DNA of 24,000 nt, taken from contig NZ_JAAOMA010000010.1 of the NCBI RefSeq assembly GCF_011602385.1, positions 10,003 to 34,002 on the forward strand. The letters run 5' to 3'. Made by a program: the position numbers and the translations under genes. This document shows, in pieces, positions 1 to 24,000 of the stretch. This DNA comes from Chromobacterium fluminis. Lineage in GTDB: Bacteria; Pseudomonadota; Gammaproteobacteria; Burkholderiales; Chromobacteriaceae. Position 1 is the first letter of the stretch, and the number at the start of each line of letters is the position of its first letter. The notes under the pieces were generated by a model, which saw only the letters and a list, made by a program, of their open reading frames with translations, ran no database searches and was not told the origin of the DNA.

Positions 1-1
1 G

Positions 2-760
2 GCCAGAGAGCTACGCCATGCCATAGCGCAGGGCGAGCTGCGGCTATACCTGCAGCCCAAGGTCAGCCTGGCCGATGGCAAGATCTGCGGCGCCGAGGCC
101 TTGGTGCGCTGGCAGCATCCACAGCACGGCTTGTTGGCGCCCAGCGCCTTCATCGATATCGCGGAACGGTCCGGGCTAATCCACCCATTGACCGAGTGGG
201 TTGTGACGGCAACGCTGGATTTACTACAAGCTTGGCAGGGGCAGCAGCTCATGCTGCCCATCGCCGTCAACCTATCGGTGCGCAATCTGCAGGACGACAC
301 CTTGCCGGACAAGCTGCGACTTTGGCAGGAGCAGCGTTCGATTCGCACCGGTTTGTTAGAGCTGGAAATCACGGAAAGCTCCATGATGTTGGATCCGGAA
401 TTGGCGCTGGCCTTGCTGAATGAACTACGATGCGCTGGCTCCGCATTGTACGTGGATGATTTTGGCACAGGCTATTCATCGCTGAGCTATTTACAAAAAT
501 TACCGGTGGATTACATCAAGATTGATCAGTCTTTTGTAATGAATATGTCGCAGGACAAAGACTCCGCCATGATCGTGAAATCCACCATCGAACTTGTGCA
601 CCATCTGGGACGGCTGGTGGTGGCGGAGGGCGTTGAATCCGCTGCGGATTGGCAAAGCTTGCGAGAGATGGGATGTGATTATGCGCAGGGGTTTTTCATC
701 GCCTCGCCAATGCCGGCAGAGGAGTTTGCCGCCTGGACTAGCTCTTTCCGGGCGCCATAG
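2..760 (+). CDS. EAL-domain cyclic-di-GMP phosphodiesterase, C-terminal portion (5' end lies outside the window)
   Basis: The frame of ORF 101..760 stays open back to nt 2 (ARELRHAIAQGELRLYLQPKVSLADGKICGAEALVRW...). EAL-family blocks are present: EALVRW, ELEITES, DDFGTGYSSLSYL, KIDQSFV, AEGVES, QGFF. Confidence 0.85.
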   Translation, partial: ARELRHAIAQGELRLYLQPKVSLADGKICGAEALVRWQHPQHGLLAPSAFIDIAERSGLIHPLTEWVVTATLDLLQAWQGQQLMLPIAVNLSVRNLQDDTLPDKLRLWQEQRSIRTGLLELEITESSMMLDPELALALLNELRCAGSALYVDDFGTGYSSLSYLQKLPVDYIKIDQSFVMNMSQDKDSAMIVKSTIELVHHLGRLVVAEGVESAADWQSLREMGCDYAQGFFIASPMPAEEFAAWTSSFRAP

Positions 761-20154: not shown

Positions 20155-20730
20155 ATGGCTGCGCGCGCAATCGTCCGGGAGGGCGATACCACTTCACATG
20201 GCGGCACCGTGCTGGAGTCATTCCCCAACTTCAATATCTATGGCAAGAACGCATCCGGCATCGGCCACCGTGGCTACTGTCCGCAGTGCAGGACAGAGTT
20301 CGTCATCGTGGCCGGGGCGCAAAACGTCATCTTCATGGGCAAGAATGTGGCGGTGGAAGGGATGCTCACTTCCTGCGGCGCAGTCCTGATTGCCTCCCAG
20401 TCTCAAGCCACGGTAGATACCGACCCTGGCGCAGCCAAGAGGGTGCCCGGGCCGCTGAGCGCGATGATAGCGGCGGGGGCGCCCTTGCCGGCGGTTGGCC
20501 AGCATTGGATTGGTTTCTCGCTTCCCGCAGAGGAAAATTATGCAGACTTGGTTTGTTTGGTTAACTTCAGTGATGGTAGCTTAAAAGAGGTTAAGTTTGG
20601 TCAAGATGGCTGTGTCAGGATTGATGCTATTGCTGAGATCACCGGGGTTAAAGTCGAATTGAAAAATGATATCGATGTGGATAGTAGCGAGAGCATGACT
20701 CGCACCCTTGCCAATTTGATTGGAGTTTAA
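20155..20730 (+). CDS. PAAR-domain protein (T6SS spike-tip type) with a ~75-aa C-terminal extension domain
   Basis: I prefer the ATG at 20155 (AGGA 5 nt upstream). MAARAIVREGDTTSHGGTVL...GIGHRGYCPQC...VIFMGKNVAVEGMLTSCGAVLIAS shows the GD.T.HGG opening, His/Cys metal-site residues and the closing CGA.LI typical of PAAR proteins. Then come a Pro/Ala linker and a beta-rich tail (aa 116-191). The overlapping 229-aa ORF 19875..20564 is rejected. Confidence 0.85.
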   Translation: MAARAIVREGDTTSHGGTVLESFPNFNIYGKNASGIGHRGYCPQCRTEFVIVAGAQNVIFMGKNVAVEGMLTSCGAVLIASQSQATVDTDPGAAKRVPGPLSAMIAAGAPLPAVGQHWIGFSLPAEENYADLVCLVNFSDGSLKEVKFGQDGCVRIDAIAEITGVKVELKNDIDVDSSESMTRTLANLIGV

Positions 20731-20733
20731 CCA

Positions 20734-21579
20734 ATGACTGACGTGACTTATGGTCGAAGTAGAAGTGCAGGTACTTCAACGATTGGTGGGGTAAGTATCC
20801 CATCGCATAAAATAGAATACTTAGGGCAATATCAAGTCAATAGAAATCATGAACTCGAGTCGCCATTAAAGAGAAGCATTGCGGACATGAAAGGCGCAGC
20901 GGCACGCTTTGCGGCGGATGCTATTAATGATGCGAAAATAAGAGTTTCTTATGAGGGAAATATACAAAGGATGGCGCAAGCTGTTTTAGACGAGGTTCAT
21001 GCGGGCAGTATGACGGCCAAGGAAGGCATGGAGTTTGCTACCGATATGCGGAATAAGATTATGATGGAGCACCGAGCGGTCACTTCGGCACAAGGTGTTG
21101 CCGCAGCGGAAAAACATAAATTAAAAGGACGGACTATCAAGGAGTTATTGGATAAGACTGCTGGGAAAATATTTAATAAAGGTTTCGATAGTCTAACGTC
21201 TGTTGAACAAAATAAGGTTTACTATGCGATTATCGAATCTTCAGCACGACCAAGTGGCACAATAAATACAAGAGTGAAAGTAATAAATGTGATGGGGAAA
21301 GTGGGGTGGGTTGTGACGGCAACCTTGGCTACTTATGCGATTGCTAATGCAGGGGATAAAAAGAAAGAGATAGTGAGGCAAGGGGCTATTATTGGTGGAG
21401 GTATGGCGGGTGGCTATCTGGCAGGTATTCTTGTGACGCCAATATGTGGGCCGGGTGCGCCAATTTGTGCAATTGCTGTTGTCTTGGTAGGTAGTGTTAT
21501 TGGTGCGGGGGTGTCAGAGCACATAGTTGATAGTATTGATGAAGAAATGGAGGAGTTTGCAAAATGGAATATGCAATAA
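20734..21579 (+). CDS. putative PAAR-associated effector: helical domain plus C-terminal glycine-zipper hydrophobic hairpin (colicin-like pore-former candidate)
   Basis: GGAG RBS; the ATG is 3 nt after the PAAR stop. aa 217-260, GAIIGGGMAGGYLAGILVTPICGPGAPICAIAVVLVGSVIGAGV, form a 44-residue hydrophobic hairpin with a central Pro/Gly turn. An amphipathic helical region precedes it (KGRTIKELLDKTAGKIF, SLTSVEQNKVYYAII) and an acidic tail follows (IVDSIDEEMEEF). The CDS call is solid; the function is inferred. Confidence 0.6.
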   Translation: MTDVTYGRSRSAGTSTIGGVSIPSHKIEYLGQYQVNRNHELESPLKRSIADMKGAAARFAADAINDAKIRVSYEGNIQRMAQAVLDEVHAGSMTAKEGMEFATDMRNKIMMEHRAVTSAQGVAAAEKHKLKGRTIKELLDKTAGKIFNKGFDSLTSVEQNKVYYAIIESSARPSGTINTRVKVINVMGKVGWVVTATLATYAIANAGDKKKEIVRQGAIIGGGMAGGYLAGILVTPICGPGAPICAIAVVLVGSVIGAGVSEHIVDSIDEEMEEFAKWNMQ

Positions 21580-22028
21580 CTGCCTTCAGTTTGCTTAAGG
21601 ATGATAAGCCATCAAACGATGGGAATATTTATTACTTCCTATTGTTTGATGGAAATAAAACGGGAGTGAGGACGTATTGTGAATCGATTTTTGCGCAATA
21701 TCATCTAGTTAAAAGCAATAGATATTTAATAGTGTTGGAGAATAGCTATTGGGAGGGGGATGATTATGTTTTTTATCTGCTAGATGCCCGTTGTGAAGTG
21801 CTGGATTGTATGAATGTTATTTGGTTTGAGGGGGACCCTGGGCATATACAGCACTATCAGTTGAGTGATGATGAGTTTTGCTTTGAAAAGTATGAGAACA
21901 ATAAAAAGTATACGCTGAGGATTAGTGATGAGGGGGAGCTCCGTTACTCGGGGGCAGATTTCAAATATAGGGCATTGCTCGACTTCATTAAGCCGCGTAA
22001 ATTTCTGGCCCTGGCTGTGCAGGGGTAA
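21564..22028 (+). CDS. 154-aa soluble protein, paralog 1 (immunity or accessory candidate)
   Basis: The ATG lies inside the last 16 nt of the effector gene (GGAGGAG RBS 8 nt upstream). No signal peptide or TM segment. Clearly homologous to the next gene. Confidence 0.75.
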   Translation: MEYAITAFSLLKDDKPSNDGNIYYFLLFDGNKTGVRTYCESIFAQYHLVKSNRYLIVLENSYWEGDDYVFYLLDARCEVLDCMNVIWFEGDPGHIQHYQLSDDEFCFEKYENNKKYTLRISDEGELRYSGADFKYRALLDFIKPRKFLALAVQG

Positions 22029-22095
22029 TGCCTGCGCCCCTATTCATCTGCTGGGAATGGTAGAGTATGGCCTAGTGAGGGGGAGAGGGAGCTAG

Positions 22096-22560
22096 ATGGC
22101 AAATGCAATAAAAGAATTTGATGTGATAGAAAGCCCAAGAAAGCCAGGGTGTGTGATTGTTTACTTTGATCTTTTGCATAACGGCCAGAAAACAGGCGTC
22201 AAGGTAATGAGCGAGTCGGTTTTTGCTCAGTACTGGATGGAAGATTCTGAACGTTATTTTTTAGTATTTCAGAATGCTCCCTGGGAGGAAACTAATTATG
22301 AATTTTATCTTTTAACAAAAGATTTTCTGGTTTTGGATCGCGTGCATCTATTTTCGCCTGATGGCCGTGATGATGAATTGATTGATAGTTACGAGCTGAA
22401 GGATGGTGTCTTTTCCTTTAGAAAATACGAGAACGGTAATAGGTATAATGTGCTGATTGATAAGAAGGGAAAGATTCGATATGCCTTTAGTGATTTTAAG
22501 TATCGATTAATATCAGGGGCGCTAAAACCGGTCAAGTATCTGCAGTTAACCCCCTTGTGA
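22096..22560 (+). CDS. 154-aa soluble protein, paralog 2 (immunity or accessory candidate)
   Basis: GGGAG RBS. My hand alignment to 21564..22028 gives roughly 35-40% identity with two 1-aa indels (shared blocks GxKTGV, ESxFAQY, RYxxV, YxFYLL, VLD, FxKYEN, RYxxxDFKYR). Confidence 0.75.
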   Translation: MANAIKEFDVIESPRKPGCVIVYFDLLHNGQKTGVKVMSESVFAQYWMEDSERYFLVFQNAPWEETNYEFYLLTKDFLVLDRVHLFSPDGRDDELIDSYELKDGVFSFRKYENGNRYNVLIDKKGKIRYAFSDFKYRLISGALKPVKYLQLTPL

Positions 22561-22603
22561 ATTATCGGAAGGGGAGTATTTTTGGTTGTGCCAGGGAGGT
22601 GGT

Positions 22604-22975
22604 ATGGGGTTTTTGTCTCGATTGTTTAAGTGGAAGTCAAGACGAGCCGTGGAGAAGGTTGTGTTTGATGAGAGTAAAATTATCCATAGCCCATTGAAGG
22701 GTGAGGATATTGAGTTCCATTGGGCCGATCTGAGCGAGGTAAGTATCGAAACCACGGATCAAGGGCCGTTTGTAGATGACGTGTTTTGGGTGCTTGCTGG
22801 AGGTGGTCGGTTTTGTCGCATTTCAAGCAATGCGGAAGGCATGGAGGAACTCTTGGAGAAATTGGGTGAGTTACCTGAGTTTGATCACCAGATGGCTATC
22901 GTTGCGATGAGCGTAGCAACAAACGCAAGGTTTGAATGTTGGAAAAAGCAGGGATTGGTTCCTGTTGAAGCGTAA
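22604..22975 (+). CDS. hypothetical 123-aa protein
   Basis: I prefer the ATG at 22604 (GGGAGG 4 nt upstream) over the track TTG at 22586. MGFLSRLFKWKSRR... No TM segment or signal peptide. Low GC like the rest of the cassette. Confidence 0.65.
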   Translation: MGFLSRLFKWKSRRAVEKVVFDESKIIHSPLKGEDIEFHWADLSEVSIETTDQGPFVDDVFWVLAGGGRFCRISSNAEGMEELLEKLGELPEFDHQMAIVAMSVATNARFECWKKQGLVPVEA

Positions 22976-23047
22976 AGTGCTTAGTTCTGAAACCTATGCA
23001 GGCTAAGTGGCGCTAGAACGGCTTGTTTCTGCTGACCTTGTAATGAT

Positions 23048-23710
23048 ATGCGCATGAATCATTTCGCGGTTTTACTGTTTCTGCCAACATTGGCCTTGGC
23101 TGCTGAGGTGTTTAATGGTTATGAGACCTATTATAGCCGCTTGCCAAATCGCTTATTCCCGTCTCCTAGTGTCGAGCTAGAGCCTTTCAGCCTGGAGGGG
23201 GAACCGGAGGTCCGATATGTTTGGCAGGGCATGGCAGCGGGTCGCCATCATAAGGTAGAGCTGAAAGAGGGCAAGATCATCCTGGATGGGCGGACATGGT
23301 TGGCCAAGTCGATCAGAGCCTTTCCCGGCGAGGTGGTTAATGCAGGCGATCTGGGGAGAGAGGCCGTAGCCTATTTCGCCACCGGTTGGGCATGTGTGGA
23401 AAATACCCCAGCATCGGCCTCGGGTACGGCGGCGAGGCACAAGTCGGTCTACCTGTTGCGCTTGGGCAGATCCAAGCCTCAAGGATGGAAGCTACCCAGC
23501 CTGTTTGCATCCTGTCAGGGCCTTAGGTTTTTGAACGGCCAAGTACGGTTCGACAAGCTTGAGTATCGCTATCGGAGTGGCAAGGATGAGCCGGCTGGGG
23601 TGGTACTCCATGAGTACGCGATTAAGTCCGGCCGATTTGTGCCCTTGGCGGGCAAGCGTTTCGCCTTCTTTGTAGAGGAGGGGAATGTGTATAGATTTTT
23701 GCTTGATTGA
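23048..23710 (+). CDS. hypothetical periplasmic/secreted 220-aa protein
   Basis: Signal peptide MRMNHFAVLLFLPTLALA/AEV (alternative ATG at 23054). Intermediate GC (about 55% in 23221..23280). No recognisable family. Confidence 0.7.
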   Translation: MRMNHFAVLLFLPTLALAAEVFNGYETYYSRLPNRLFPSPSVELEPFSLEGEPEVRYVWQGMAAGRHHKVELKEGKIILDGRTWLAKSIRAFPGEVVNAGDLGREAVAYFATGWACVENTPASASGTAARHKSVYLLRLGRSKPQGWKLPSLFASCQGLRFLNGQVRFDKLEYRYRSGKDEPAGVVLHEYAIKSGRFVPLAGKRFAFFVEEGNVYRFLLD

Positions 23711-23898
23711 TTGCTGTGGAAGAGCCTGCACCAATCAGTTACGTGCCCCGTTTTCTATCACACCGATGCACGCAGTCCCCCGCATAGGTGTGCACATCGC
23801 TCCAGTTGCATGCTCCCCCGTTTCTAGTCTTCGCAAGCGCTCGCCATAGGCAAGGAGTGGCTTACGGGCTGTTGTTGTTTGGCGAAAGCGAAGTGCGG

Positions 23899-24000
23899 AT
23901 GGAAGGCGGCGGCTGTACCGCAATCGCCCGGGAGGGCGATATCACCTCCACTGTGCTTGGGTTTCGGTTCTACCGTCCCCATGACCGCATTCTCTCCAAA
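23899..24000 (+). CDS. start of a second PAAR-like ORF (runs off the window); possibly degenerate
   Basis: The ATG at 23899 opens MEGGGCTAIAREGDITSTVLGFRFYRPHDRILSK. nt 23920..23949 match nt 20167..20196 of the first PAAR gene at 26/30 positions. After an exact 9-nt gap (the HGG codons) another 10/14 positions match. Only 34 codons are visible. Confidence 0.35.
   Translation, partial: MEGGGCTAIAREGDITSTVLGFRFYRPHDRILSK

Follow-up and report, generated by a model that had tools for sequence, protein, structure and literature searches.

A probable type VI secretion "PAAR island" with a polymorphic cargo-effector module in Chromobacterium fluminis

The cassette and its six genes

The locus described here lies near the right end of a 24,000-nucleotide (nt) stretch of Chromobacterium fluminis DNA (contig NZ_JAAOMA010000010.1; this stretch is the window, and coordinates are window positions unless a locus number, such as L086, is attached). 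Six plus-strand genes form a tight array at this place. They encode a PAAR protein, a candidate effector of 281 amino acids (aa), which we call EFF, two paralogous proteins of 154 aa, I1 and I2, and two further products, G5 and G6. An earlier note, made from the letters of this DNA alone, had described about 600 bp of non-coding DNA followed by six packed co-directional genes, the first of them for a PAAR protein, the second starting 3 nt after its stop and the third inside the second, and the observations below agree with each of these points. There is a stretch of about 620 bp without a credible gene between the end of the nearest upstream gene, for a BglG-type antiterminator (19534), and the PAAR start at 20155.

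The complete PAAR gene (20155-20730) has a ribosome-binding site (RBS), AAGGAA, 7 nt 5' of the start codon; a longer reading frame from the ATG at 20140 is possible. The product matches Pfam profile PF05488 with 71.1 bits (cut-off 27, E 9.5e-20), with aa 14-85 covering profile positions 1-70 of 70. Its score against the NCBIfam equivalog NF033420 (T6SS_PAAR_dom) is 17.6 bits, below the cut-off of 124; the protein belongs to the PAAR superfamily outside the narrow NF033420 subfamily. The gene has two parts. The first (20155-20474, G+C content 0.58-0.63) consists of the PAAR domain, where the Pfam match spans nt 20179-20394, and a Pro/Ala-rich linker, and is the constant part of the gene. The second (20475-20730) is variable and encodes a C-terminal domain (CTD) of about 80 aa. 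EFF (20734-21579) starts 3 nt past the PAAR stop, and I1 (21564-22028) starts 16 nt before the EFF gene ends. I2 (22096-22560) follows, and then G5 (22604-22975; a soluble protein of 123 aa, or 129 aa if read from an upstream TTG at 22586) and G6 (23048-23710; 220 aa, with a signal-like hydrophobic segment at aa 4-24).

EFF, I1, I2, G5 and G6 have no match in Pfam, NCBIfam, PHROGs or PADLOC, as had been anticipated for the five proteins downstream of PAAR. They are real genes rather than chance open reading frames (ORFs), as judged by the 114 clusters of EFF homologs, the conserved relatives of I1, and the gene order kept in dozens of genomes. EFF and I1 are 100% identical to NCBI entries HA052_09020 and HA052_09025, respectively, both listed under C. 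haemolyticum. The G+C content drops from 0.63 to 0.44 at about position 20500, inside the PAAR gene at the CTD boundary, and recovers at about 23100. G5 lies inside this block (0.45-0.51), and the recovery leaves G6 with a host-like composition (0.55-0.61). Thus, the cassette is of low G+C content, as had been claimed, but only between these two points, with most of the PAAR gene and G6 outside.

What had been taken for the start of a second PAAR-like gene at the window end is a decayed 5' remnant of a PAAR gene (23886-24000). It consists of an RBS and about 20 codons with a 9-nt deletion that takes out the HGG motif. The 42-codon ORF from 23899 ends 27 nt beyond the window, as seen in Logan contig L001, which extends 1.3 kb past it. 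The core of the alignment between remnant and intact gene is a 30-nt direct repeat (20166-20195 and 23919-23948, 27/30 matching), and the scar is also present at the equivalent place in C. rhizoryzae. The scar is the probable right boundary of an exchangeable cassette (see below).

The effector candidate, its carriers and its phage-borne copies

All 114 clusters of EFF homologs are labelled "hypothetical" and none has a Pfam domain, nor was a Pfam family found across 76 family members. Alignments and the AlphaFold2 (AF2) model give the protein a variable, disordered N-terminus (aa 1-40), followed by a helical domain (aa 44-180, pLDDT about 80) with the motif MRNKIMxExRxxTSxxG, by hydrophobic and glycine-zipper segments (aa 188-261; one hydrophobic segment spans aa 229-265), and by an acidic tail, DEE(L/M)EEFxKW. 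The glycine-zipper motifs are GMAGGYLAG at aa 223 and GSVIGAGVS at aa 253; they are shared with other toxins as a motif, which is not evidence of common descent. Between the two zipper helices, the whole family has an invariant turn, C238-GPGAP-x-C245 (21445-21468), which may be a disulfide-locked hairpin and would, if so, hint at activation in an oxidising compartment. Column entropy across the family is lowest in this transmembrane (TM)/zipper region (0.65-1.0) and in the motif of the helical domain, and highest at aa 21-40 and 131-160.

Three assignments of EFF to known families failed. The colicin pore domain PF01024, a profile that the earlier note had proposed for searching, does not match EFF in Pfam at E values up to 1, and does not appear among the 25 profiles that the 76 members of the EFF family match most frequently. 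The stretch MRNKIMxEH recalls the Rx4-6H nuclease motif of the HEPN type; we reject this reading because the His is not conserved, other members of the family having A, V or I in its place. Finally, the JGI name "mini-RNase III", attached to three EFF homologs, has no Pfam support and was treated as an annotation artefact.

Homologs of EFF are found in Pseudomonas, Stutzerimonas, Xenorhabdus, Providencia, Aeromonas, Enterovibrio, Iodobacter, Collimonas, Frischella, Chromobacterium, Burkholderia, and other genera. We compared 94 related loci, 76 of them from a scan of one genome per species and 18 from viral contigs, together with the loci of Chromobacterium. In almost every locus with a full-length homolog, the preceding ORF ends at most 11 nt from the effector start or overlaps it, and in nearly all loci the last 80 or so residues encoded by that ORF are homologous to the CTD of the window PAAR protein. 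Pfam scans of 52 carriers found PAAR in 48 and Hcp in four. Ten VgrG carriers were identified, and the two full-length ones checked with Pfam consist of Phage_GPD, Phage_base_V, T6SS_Vgr and DUF2345, followed by the CTD. In Xenorhabdus, Hcp (T6SS_HCP) with a CTD stands directly upstream of the EFF homolog (L052 7181-7975, L054 87-758, L060 7041-7871, L071 87-758); here, an Hcp would carry an adaptor and not a toxin as its extension. The order of carrier with extension, effector and small downstream gene is conserved across genomes, and one and the same unit of CTD and effector is joined to alternative secreted carriers, namely PAAR, VgrG and Hcp. A survey of these neighbourhoods was among the checks that the earlier note had called for, and linkage to PAAR, VgrG or Hcp is seen in nearly every locus. 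The downstream small genes of VgrG-type loci are followed by a conserved ORF, about 680-690 aa long (L047 2544-4592, L059 3986-6043, L061 9564-11609, L064 2714-4759, L067 10180-12261), which could encode another effector or spike protein.

The consensus of the CTD is WIGFxxPxxxxYxGLxCxAxFDDGSxLxGxFDxxNxVxF...SLTExLLxxIxG. It belongs to no Pfam family in any carrier, and in VgrG carriers it is preceded by a stretch that, by eye, resembles the TTR motif. The CTD is a candidate for an effector-specific loading platform; effector loading had been suggested for this locus, aptly, as the C-terminal domain of the PAAR protein travels with the effector. We hold with considerable confidence that the locus is a cargo-effector/immunity module belonging to a type VI secretion system (T6SS), borne by a PAAR protein and equipped with a built-in adaptor.

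Some copies of the module are carried by phages. A siphophage tail module of C. violaceum has the PAAR-EFF-I1 triad between its genes for the tail assembly chaperone and the tape measure protein (L084 9429-11286; also L085 and L091), and IMG/VR lists the element as viral (99.6% identical). A further 17 IMG/VR contigs have a triad, which is made of CTD, effector and the soluble protein DUF7079 in 16 of 17; no CTD was detected in L108. In L106 (7416-9103), the triad of PAAR-CTD, effector and DUF7079 sits between Q and the lysis genes of a prophage that has a lambda-type integrase, Q antiterminator, DUF968 and phage lysozyme, and is unrelated to the C. violaceum prophage. In L107, the triad is near a Shedu gene and P2-like tail genes.

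Such placements give some credit to a function in the phage itself, where a tail-tip PAAR and a membrane protein would serve infection, lysis or superinfection exclusion: one triad lies within a tail module of an element that IMG/VR counts as viral, another between the Q antiterminator and lysozyme genes of a lambdoid prophage, and the PAAR protein matches phage protein families. This explanation is, nonetheless, very improbable. The same CTD is fused to bona fide VgrG and Hcp of T6SS; the flanks of the module are housekeeping genes in Pseudomonas (queA, tgt and secDF in L002-L006) and a bgl/PTS operon in the window and in L086; no match to EFF was found in 50,697 deposited phage genomes; and the prophage positions are classic moron sites. 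In lambdoid phages, the genes of Shiga toxin sit between Q and the lysis genes. The C. violaceum prophage triad looks like a moron that consists of a T6SS weapon and its antidote, and the prophage-borne copies suggest that phages move such kits between strains.

Candidate immunity genes and exchange of the cassette

I1 and I2, described in the earlier note as paralogous, are 39% identical over 152 aa (E 3e-35), and I2 aligns with the I1 family throughout its length. I1 has no TM segment and no signal peptide. Its AF2 model (pLDDT 78.9, pTM 0.79) is all-beta, with 13 strands, and a Foldseek search of the PDB gave only partial resemblance to beta-propellers, which was not significant (E at least 0.014, TM score about 0.4). 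The family is rare. An exhaustive profile search gave 17 matches among 1.84e9 representatives, of which about 14 are real, all of them about 150 aa long and without Pfam domains, and a metagenome scan for I1 relatives gave no matches.

Three unrelated families are found directly 3' of EFF homologs. The first, DUF7079 (PF23296; about 118 aa, soluble), follows the effector in most loci; it was not found in the searchable literature. The second, a protein of 133-153 aa with two or three TM segments, follows the effector in the VgrG-linked subclade, sometimes in three tandem copies. The third is the I1 family, in Chromobacterium. By eye, the DUF7079 alignment looks mostly helical, as opposed to the all-beta model of I1, and the idea that I1 is a divergent DUF7079 was rejected (no Pfam match; hhalign probability 0.07%). 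Nearly all DUF7079 or I1 loci keep the overlap of 16 nt between the end of the effector gene and the next start, with the ATG at the codon of the conserved Trp in the acidic tail, and in most loci of the TM protein the next gene starts 13-76 nt past the effector stop. Closely related effectors (63-71% identity) have different downstream families. In VgrG-linked loci, no clear signal of region-specific co-variation between the effector and the type of downstream protein was seen.

C. rhizoryzae has four tandem I1 paralogs at the same site. Of these, the fourth is closest to the window I1 (72% identity), and the first shares 35% identity with it; a single I1 is present in the C. violaceum prophage copy. 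Three copies of DUF7079 are present in L063, a fused double domain in L069, and DUF7079 together with the TM protein in L067 and L061. In L078-L083, DUF7079 stands beside truncated C-terminal fragments of the effector. Coupled translation, divergent paralogs in tandem, and the persistence of a gene next to fragments of the toxin are, as far as gene layout can tell, hallmarks of immunity genes, and I1 is accordingly best described as a candidate for the cognate immunity protein. The triplicate arrays of the TM protein in the VgrG-linked subclade may be compared, by analogy, to immunity of the colicin type.

It is also conceivable that I1, I2 and DUF7079 are chaperones, which shield the hydrophobic tail before loading, whereas the effector may target eukaryotes or need no immunity at all. 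Other T6SS effectors with TM segments need chaperones, such as Eag/DUF1795; EFF has TM segments, and the three small proteins are cytoplasmic, while the co-occurrence of DUF7079 with the TM protein in L067 and L061 could represent a chaperone plus the true immunity protein. We find this improbable, however, since tandem arrays of divergent paralogs, of the kind seen in L086, L063 and L069, and the persistence of genes next to effector fragments are typical of immunity genes, and since most loci have no other immunity candidate. A distant relative of I1 was also found elsewhere, after genes for a 192-aa protein and a Tae4 amidase and a gene of 109 aa (L088 992-3173; also L089 and L090), which suggests that T6SS effector islands of other kinds also contain the I1 fold, as an orphan.

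The C. rhizoryzae locus (L086) allows the unit of exchange to be delimited. Its cassette sits at the same place in the chromosome, between the bgl operon on the upstream side and, on the downstream side, the same gene of 414 aa. In the DNA alignment, positions 20055-20474 of the window are 88-100% identical to L086 (97-100% from 20115 on), and from about 20475, which is within the first codons of the CTD, identity drops to 43-70% and then stays at about 57-82% through EFF. On the right, the flank with the scar (23702-24000) is 94% identical, as compared to 71-75% for the cassette. Because identity and G+C content both fall off abruptly, and precisely where the CTD begins, the unit of exchange appears to be CTD plus effector plus immunity gene, and the cassette is, on this comparison, probably subject to horizontal exchange. 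G5 and G6 have no counterpart in L086, and we regard them as standing outside of the conserved module, as additional cargo of the island. By eye, G5 seemed akin to the gene that follows the Acinetobacter homolog (L075), a kinship dismissed after BLASTP gave E 5.

By this pattern of identity, the locus behaves like a polymorphic toxin locus, with a constant delivery part, an abrupt junction at about 20475, a variable toxin/immunity part, and arrays of paralogs. Polymorphic toxins of the Rhs and CdiA-CT/CdiI types likewise have a constant N-terminal part for delivery that ends at a sharp junction, orphan immunity genes in arrays, and traces of older modules. The differences are that the variable part here, which lies between the constant PAAR domain and the conserved flank, is an adaptor domain with a separate effector gene and immunity genes, and not a fused toxin domain, and that the scar is a 5' rather than a 3' gene fragment. 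A PAAR-linked polymorphic effector/immunity module is what the earlier note had proposed, and the proposal stands, in view of the mosaic PAAR gene, up to four tandem paralogs of the 154-aa protein, and EFF homologs directly downstream of PAAR, VgrG or Hcp nearly everywhere.

The surroundings of the cassette can be described briefly. Upstream, a minus-strand bgl-type operon (OprB porin, family-1 glycosidase, PTS EIIBCA, and the BglG-type antiterminator) ends at 19534. The region preceding the PAAR gene (20055-20154) is 88-98% identical to L086 and cannot be aligned further upstream; a sigma-70-like site within it, at 20080-20108 of the plus strand, is a promoter-like match not above chance. An EAL-domain fragment at window positions 1-760 is 89% identical to the GGDEF/EAL gene L086 6815-7573, which is directly upstream of the C. 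rhizoryzae PAAR gene. The equivalent position in the window, 19535-20054, holds no coding sequence, and other genes, about 15.5 kb of them, stand between it and the EAL fragment; this displacement points to rearrangement or deletion at the left edge of the island. On the 3' side of the island, both Chromobacterium species have the gene for the 414-aa protein, which has no family match (L001 3984-5228; L086 12116-13360) and, in L001, is preceded by an AT-rich stretch of about 270 bp. Further downstream in C. rhizoryzae (L086 14666-18867), there is a CdiI_ImmP-type immunity gene and a CBASS-like pair (SMODS/AGS_C and SLATT_6), and the region appears to be a general hotspot of conflict systems. 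A second patch of low G+C content (0.48-0.49, with about 0.60 around it) is seen at 12000-13300; its two antisense-overlapping ORFs, 12444-13265 (minus strand) and 12486-13232 (plus strand), are both without a Pfam match.

Precedents, proposed mechanism and significance

The closest known system is a three-gene module, tested experimentally by Kanarek, Fridman, Bosis and Salomon in 2023 (PMC10435454), which consists of a carrier with a C-terminal loading platform, the effector Rte1, and the immunity protein Rti1. The carrier, which may be RIX, PAAR or VgrG, is needed for secretion through T6SS and for killing, and the TTR loading platform is predicted to bind the first 25 or so residues of Rte1 (PMC10435454). 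The resemblance to the window is considerable: a three-gene operon, in which a C-terminal extension of a secreted carrier is the adaptor for the effector encoded next, the immunity gene comes last, and the unit of adaptor, effector and immunity protein is found on different carriers; Rte1 also has a glycine-zipper-like C-terminal domain and a soluble immunity protein. Rte1 is not, however, a member of the EFF family. It is about 380 aa long (from the size of the model file) and ADP-ribosyltransferase-like, whereas EFF has 281 aa and an all-helical model; in a limited test, sampled residues 63-77 of Rte1, NLPDQRMWSEVFPEN, as well as its size and fold, were unlike EFF. Other differences are that the adaptor of the Rte1 module is a TTR domain and the window CTD has no such fold assignment, that the carriers of the CTD include Hcp, and that EFF homologs are followed by three unrelated families. 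Short C-terminal domains of the TTR or Ig-like type recruit cargo also in enteroaggregative Escherichia coli (EAEC), where VgrG1 recruits Tle1, and in Pseudomonas aeruginosa, where VgrG2a and VgrG2b recruit Tle4 and Tle3 (PMC7376260). In those cases, as probably here, a short, beta-rich extension of the spike gives specificity for an effector encoded adjacently, the difference being that the CTD has no Pfam match and no significant match to PDB sequences.

Carrier-platform, cargo and immunity modules having already been described, the soluble partners of EFF fit a known precedent, and the earlier view that they defy the usual expectations does not hold. The suggestion of an undescribed system overstates the novelty: the kind of module has been described and tested (PMC10435454), and what is new is the protein families only, that is, the effector, its loading domain, and the 154-aa immunity candidate.

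As for the effector itself, the T6SS toxins with glycine zippers or membrane-disrupting activity include Tse4, Ssp6, Tme1, VasX and Tse5-CT. These are small antibacterial effectors with hydrophobic, zipper-bearing C-terminal regions, as in EFF, but no sequence or profile relation between them and EFF was detected. Their immunity proteins are, as far as is known, membrane or periplasmic proteins, whereas I1 and DUF7079 are soluble and have no signal peptide. The membrane-disrupting Tme effectors have been described (PMC7046647). In the same genus, two orphan PAAR operons of C. violaceum, CV_2124-2126 and CV_2664-2666, lie outside the T6SS clusters; CV_2125 is secreted in a T6SS-dependent manner, PAAR proteins co-purify with VgrG3, and the authors predict a cell-wall target and immunity proteins with signal peptides (PMC13324451). 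These operons share with the window the arrangement of PAAR, effector and downstream gene away from T6SS clusters. The C. violaceum clusters of EFF homologs contain no accession of strain ATCC 12472, and homology of CV_2125 to EFF is unlikely.

The best explanation for the whole is, in our opinion, an orphan T6SS "PAAR island" that carries a polymorphic cargo-effector module with a membrane-inserting toxin, and we consider it probable. The scheme that we infer for binding of EFF by the CTD, secretion, toxicity, mode of action and immunity is as follows. The PAAR domain would cap a VgrG spike encoded elsewhere in the genome, while the CTD, as a built-in adaptor, would bind the variable N-terminus of EFF, so that the toxin is carried into a neighbouring cell on the tip of the spike. 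Binding of this kind has indirect support from the joint variation of CTD and effector and from the variable, disordered state of that N-terminus. In the neighbouring cell, the conserved C-terminal hairpin of glycine-zipper/TM helices would insert into the cytoplasmic membrane, and killing would most likely result from permeabilisation or depolarisation. I1, translationally coupled to EFF, may bind the variable surface patch of its helical domain (aa ~131-160) and, acting in the cytoplasm, hold the toxin back from insertion. I2, an orphan or second immunity candidate, may be a paralog that guards against a related allele. G5 and G6 would be additional cargo, and may be orphan immunity genes directed at other effectors. 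The unit of CTD, effector and immunity protein would be swapped between strains by recombination, with crossovers in the constant PAAR domain on the left and in the scar-bearing conserved flank on the right. A putative T6SS is reported, by Zwe and co-workers in 2022, from C. haemolyticum, the species under which EFF and I1 are listed at NCBI.

Membrane insertion with permeabilisation is a less certain part of this scheme, about as likely as not. We favour it because the zipper/TM hairpin is the most conserved element of EFF and because one subclade has TM proteins as immunity candidates. A number of observations weigh on the other side, some of them against the membrane toxin and some against the scheme as a whole. 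The helical domain of EFF has invariant polar residues, D66, R70, Y73, R106, N107, S118 and K129, a feature more to be expected of an enzyme, or of a specific binding site, than of a simple pore. The overall confidence of the AF2 model is low (pLDDT 58.5, with the TM tail below 50), and EFF has no PDB match, either by fold (Foldseek) or by sequence. Soluble immunity proteins that lack an export signal, such as I1 and DUF7079, are to our knowledge atypical for pore-forming T6SS toxins. The CTD profile gave only weak matches to PDB sequences (E 0.02-0.9), including one, with E 0.44, to the TTR-bearing C-terminal region of VgrG2b. A Pfam scan of the 18 other ORFs in the window found no T6SS core or adaptor family, in agreement with the earlier remark that vgrG, hcp, tss and adaptor genes are missing from the window, and G5 and G6 have neither an assigned role nor a family in four libraries of hidden Markov models.

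Several of these facts would be equally at home in the same T6SS module with a toxin that acts in the cytoplasm. In that case, the helical N-terminal domain would be an enzyme or a specific inhibitor, the zipper would do no more than translocate or anchor it, and I1 or DUF7079 would block its active surface. The soluble, signal-less immunity candidates of most loci suit such a toxin, as do the invariant polar residues and conserved motif of the helical domain and the location of the hypervariable patch within the soluble part. There is a precedent in Tde1, whose N-terminal glycine zipper serves translocation (PMC10240207), and translocation has likewise been proposed for the zipper of Rte1. 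We regard a cytoplasmic target as possible but rather doubtful, since the TM/zipper region, with its invariant Cys-GPGAP-x-Cys, is the most conserved part of EFF, which is more than a generic translocation helix needs; since no enzyme fold or family was detected; and since a related subclade, at 63-71% identity, has multi-TM immunity candidates. A membrane-inserting toxin, for its part, is compatible with soluble immunity if cargo carried by the PAAR tip arrives in the cytoplasm, or if the immunity protein keeps the toxin incompetent for insertion.

The boldest form of the membrane-toxin scheme joins several propositions: that EFF founds a new class of toxins, made of a conserved zipper hairpin and a novel helical domain; that three structurally unrelated solutions to immunity from the cytoplasmic side have evolved against it, namely the half-propeller-like I1, DUF7079 and the multi-TM protein; that the CTD is a universal plug, usable on PAAR, VgrG and Hcp; and that temperate phages spread the kit as a lysogenic-conversion moron. 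Taken all together, these are rather unlikely to be true. If the CTD is such a plug, one cargo could be routed through topologically different loading sites of T6SS, that is, the tip of the spike, its shaft, and the tube.

If confirmed, the findings would define a widespread and so far unnamed family of T6SS effectors with a loading domain of its own, and would give a probable role to DUF7079 of Pfam and to the rare 154-aa family. The CTD may serve as a simple sequence marker for cargo effectors that are missed by current Pfam-based pipelines. Three unrelated families of immunity candidates, in combination with an adaptor found on PAAR, VgrG and Hcp, would make a tractable system for studying how cargo is matched to its loading site and how immunity evolves repeatedly. 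The promiscuity of the carriers and the three solutions to immunity, in particular, merit the attention of specialists.

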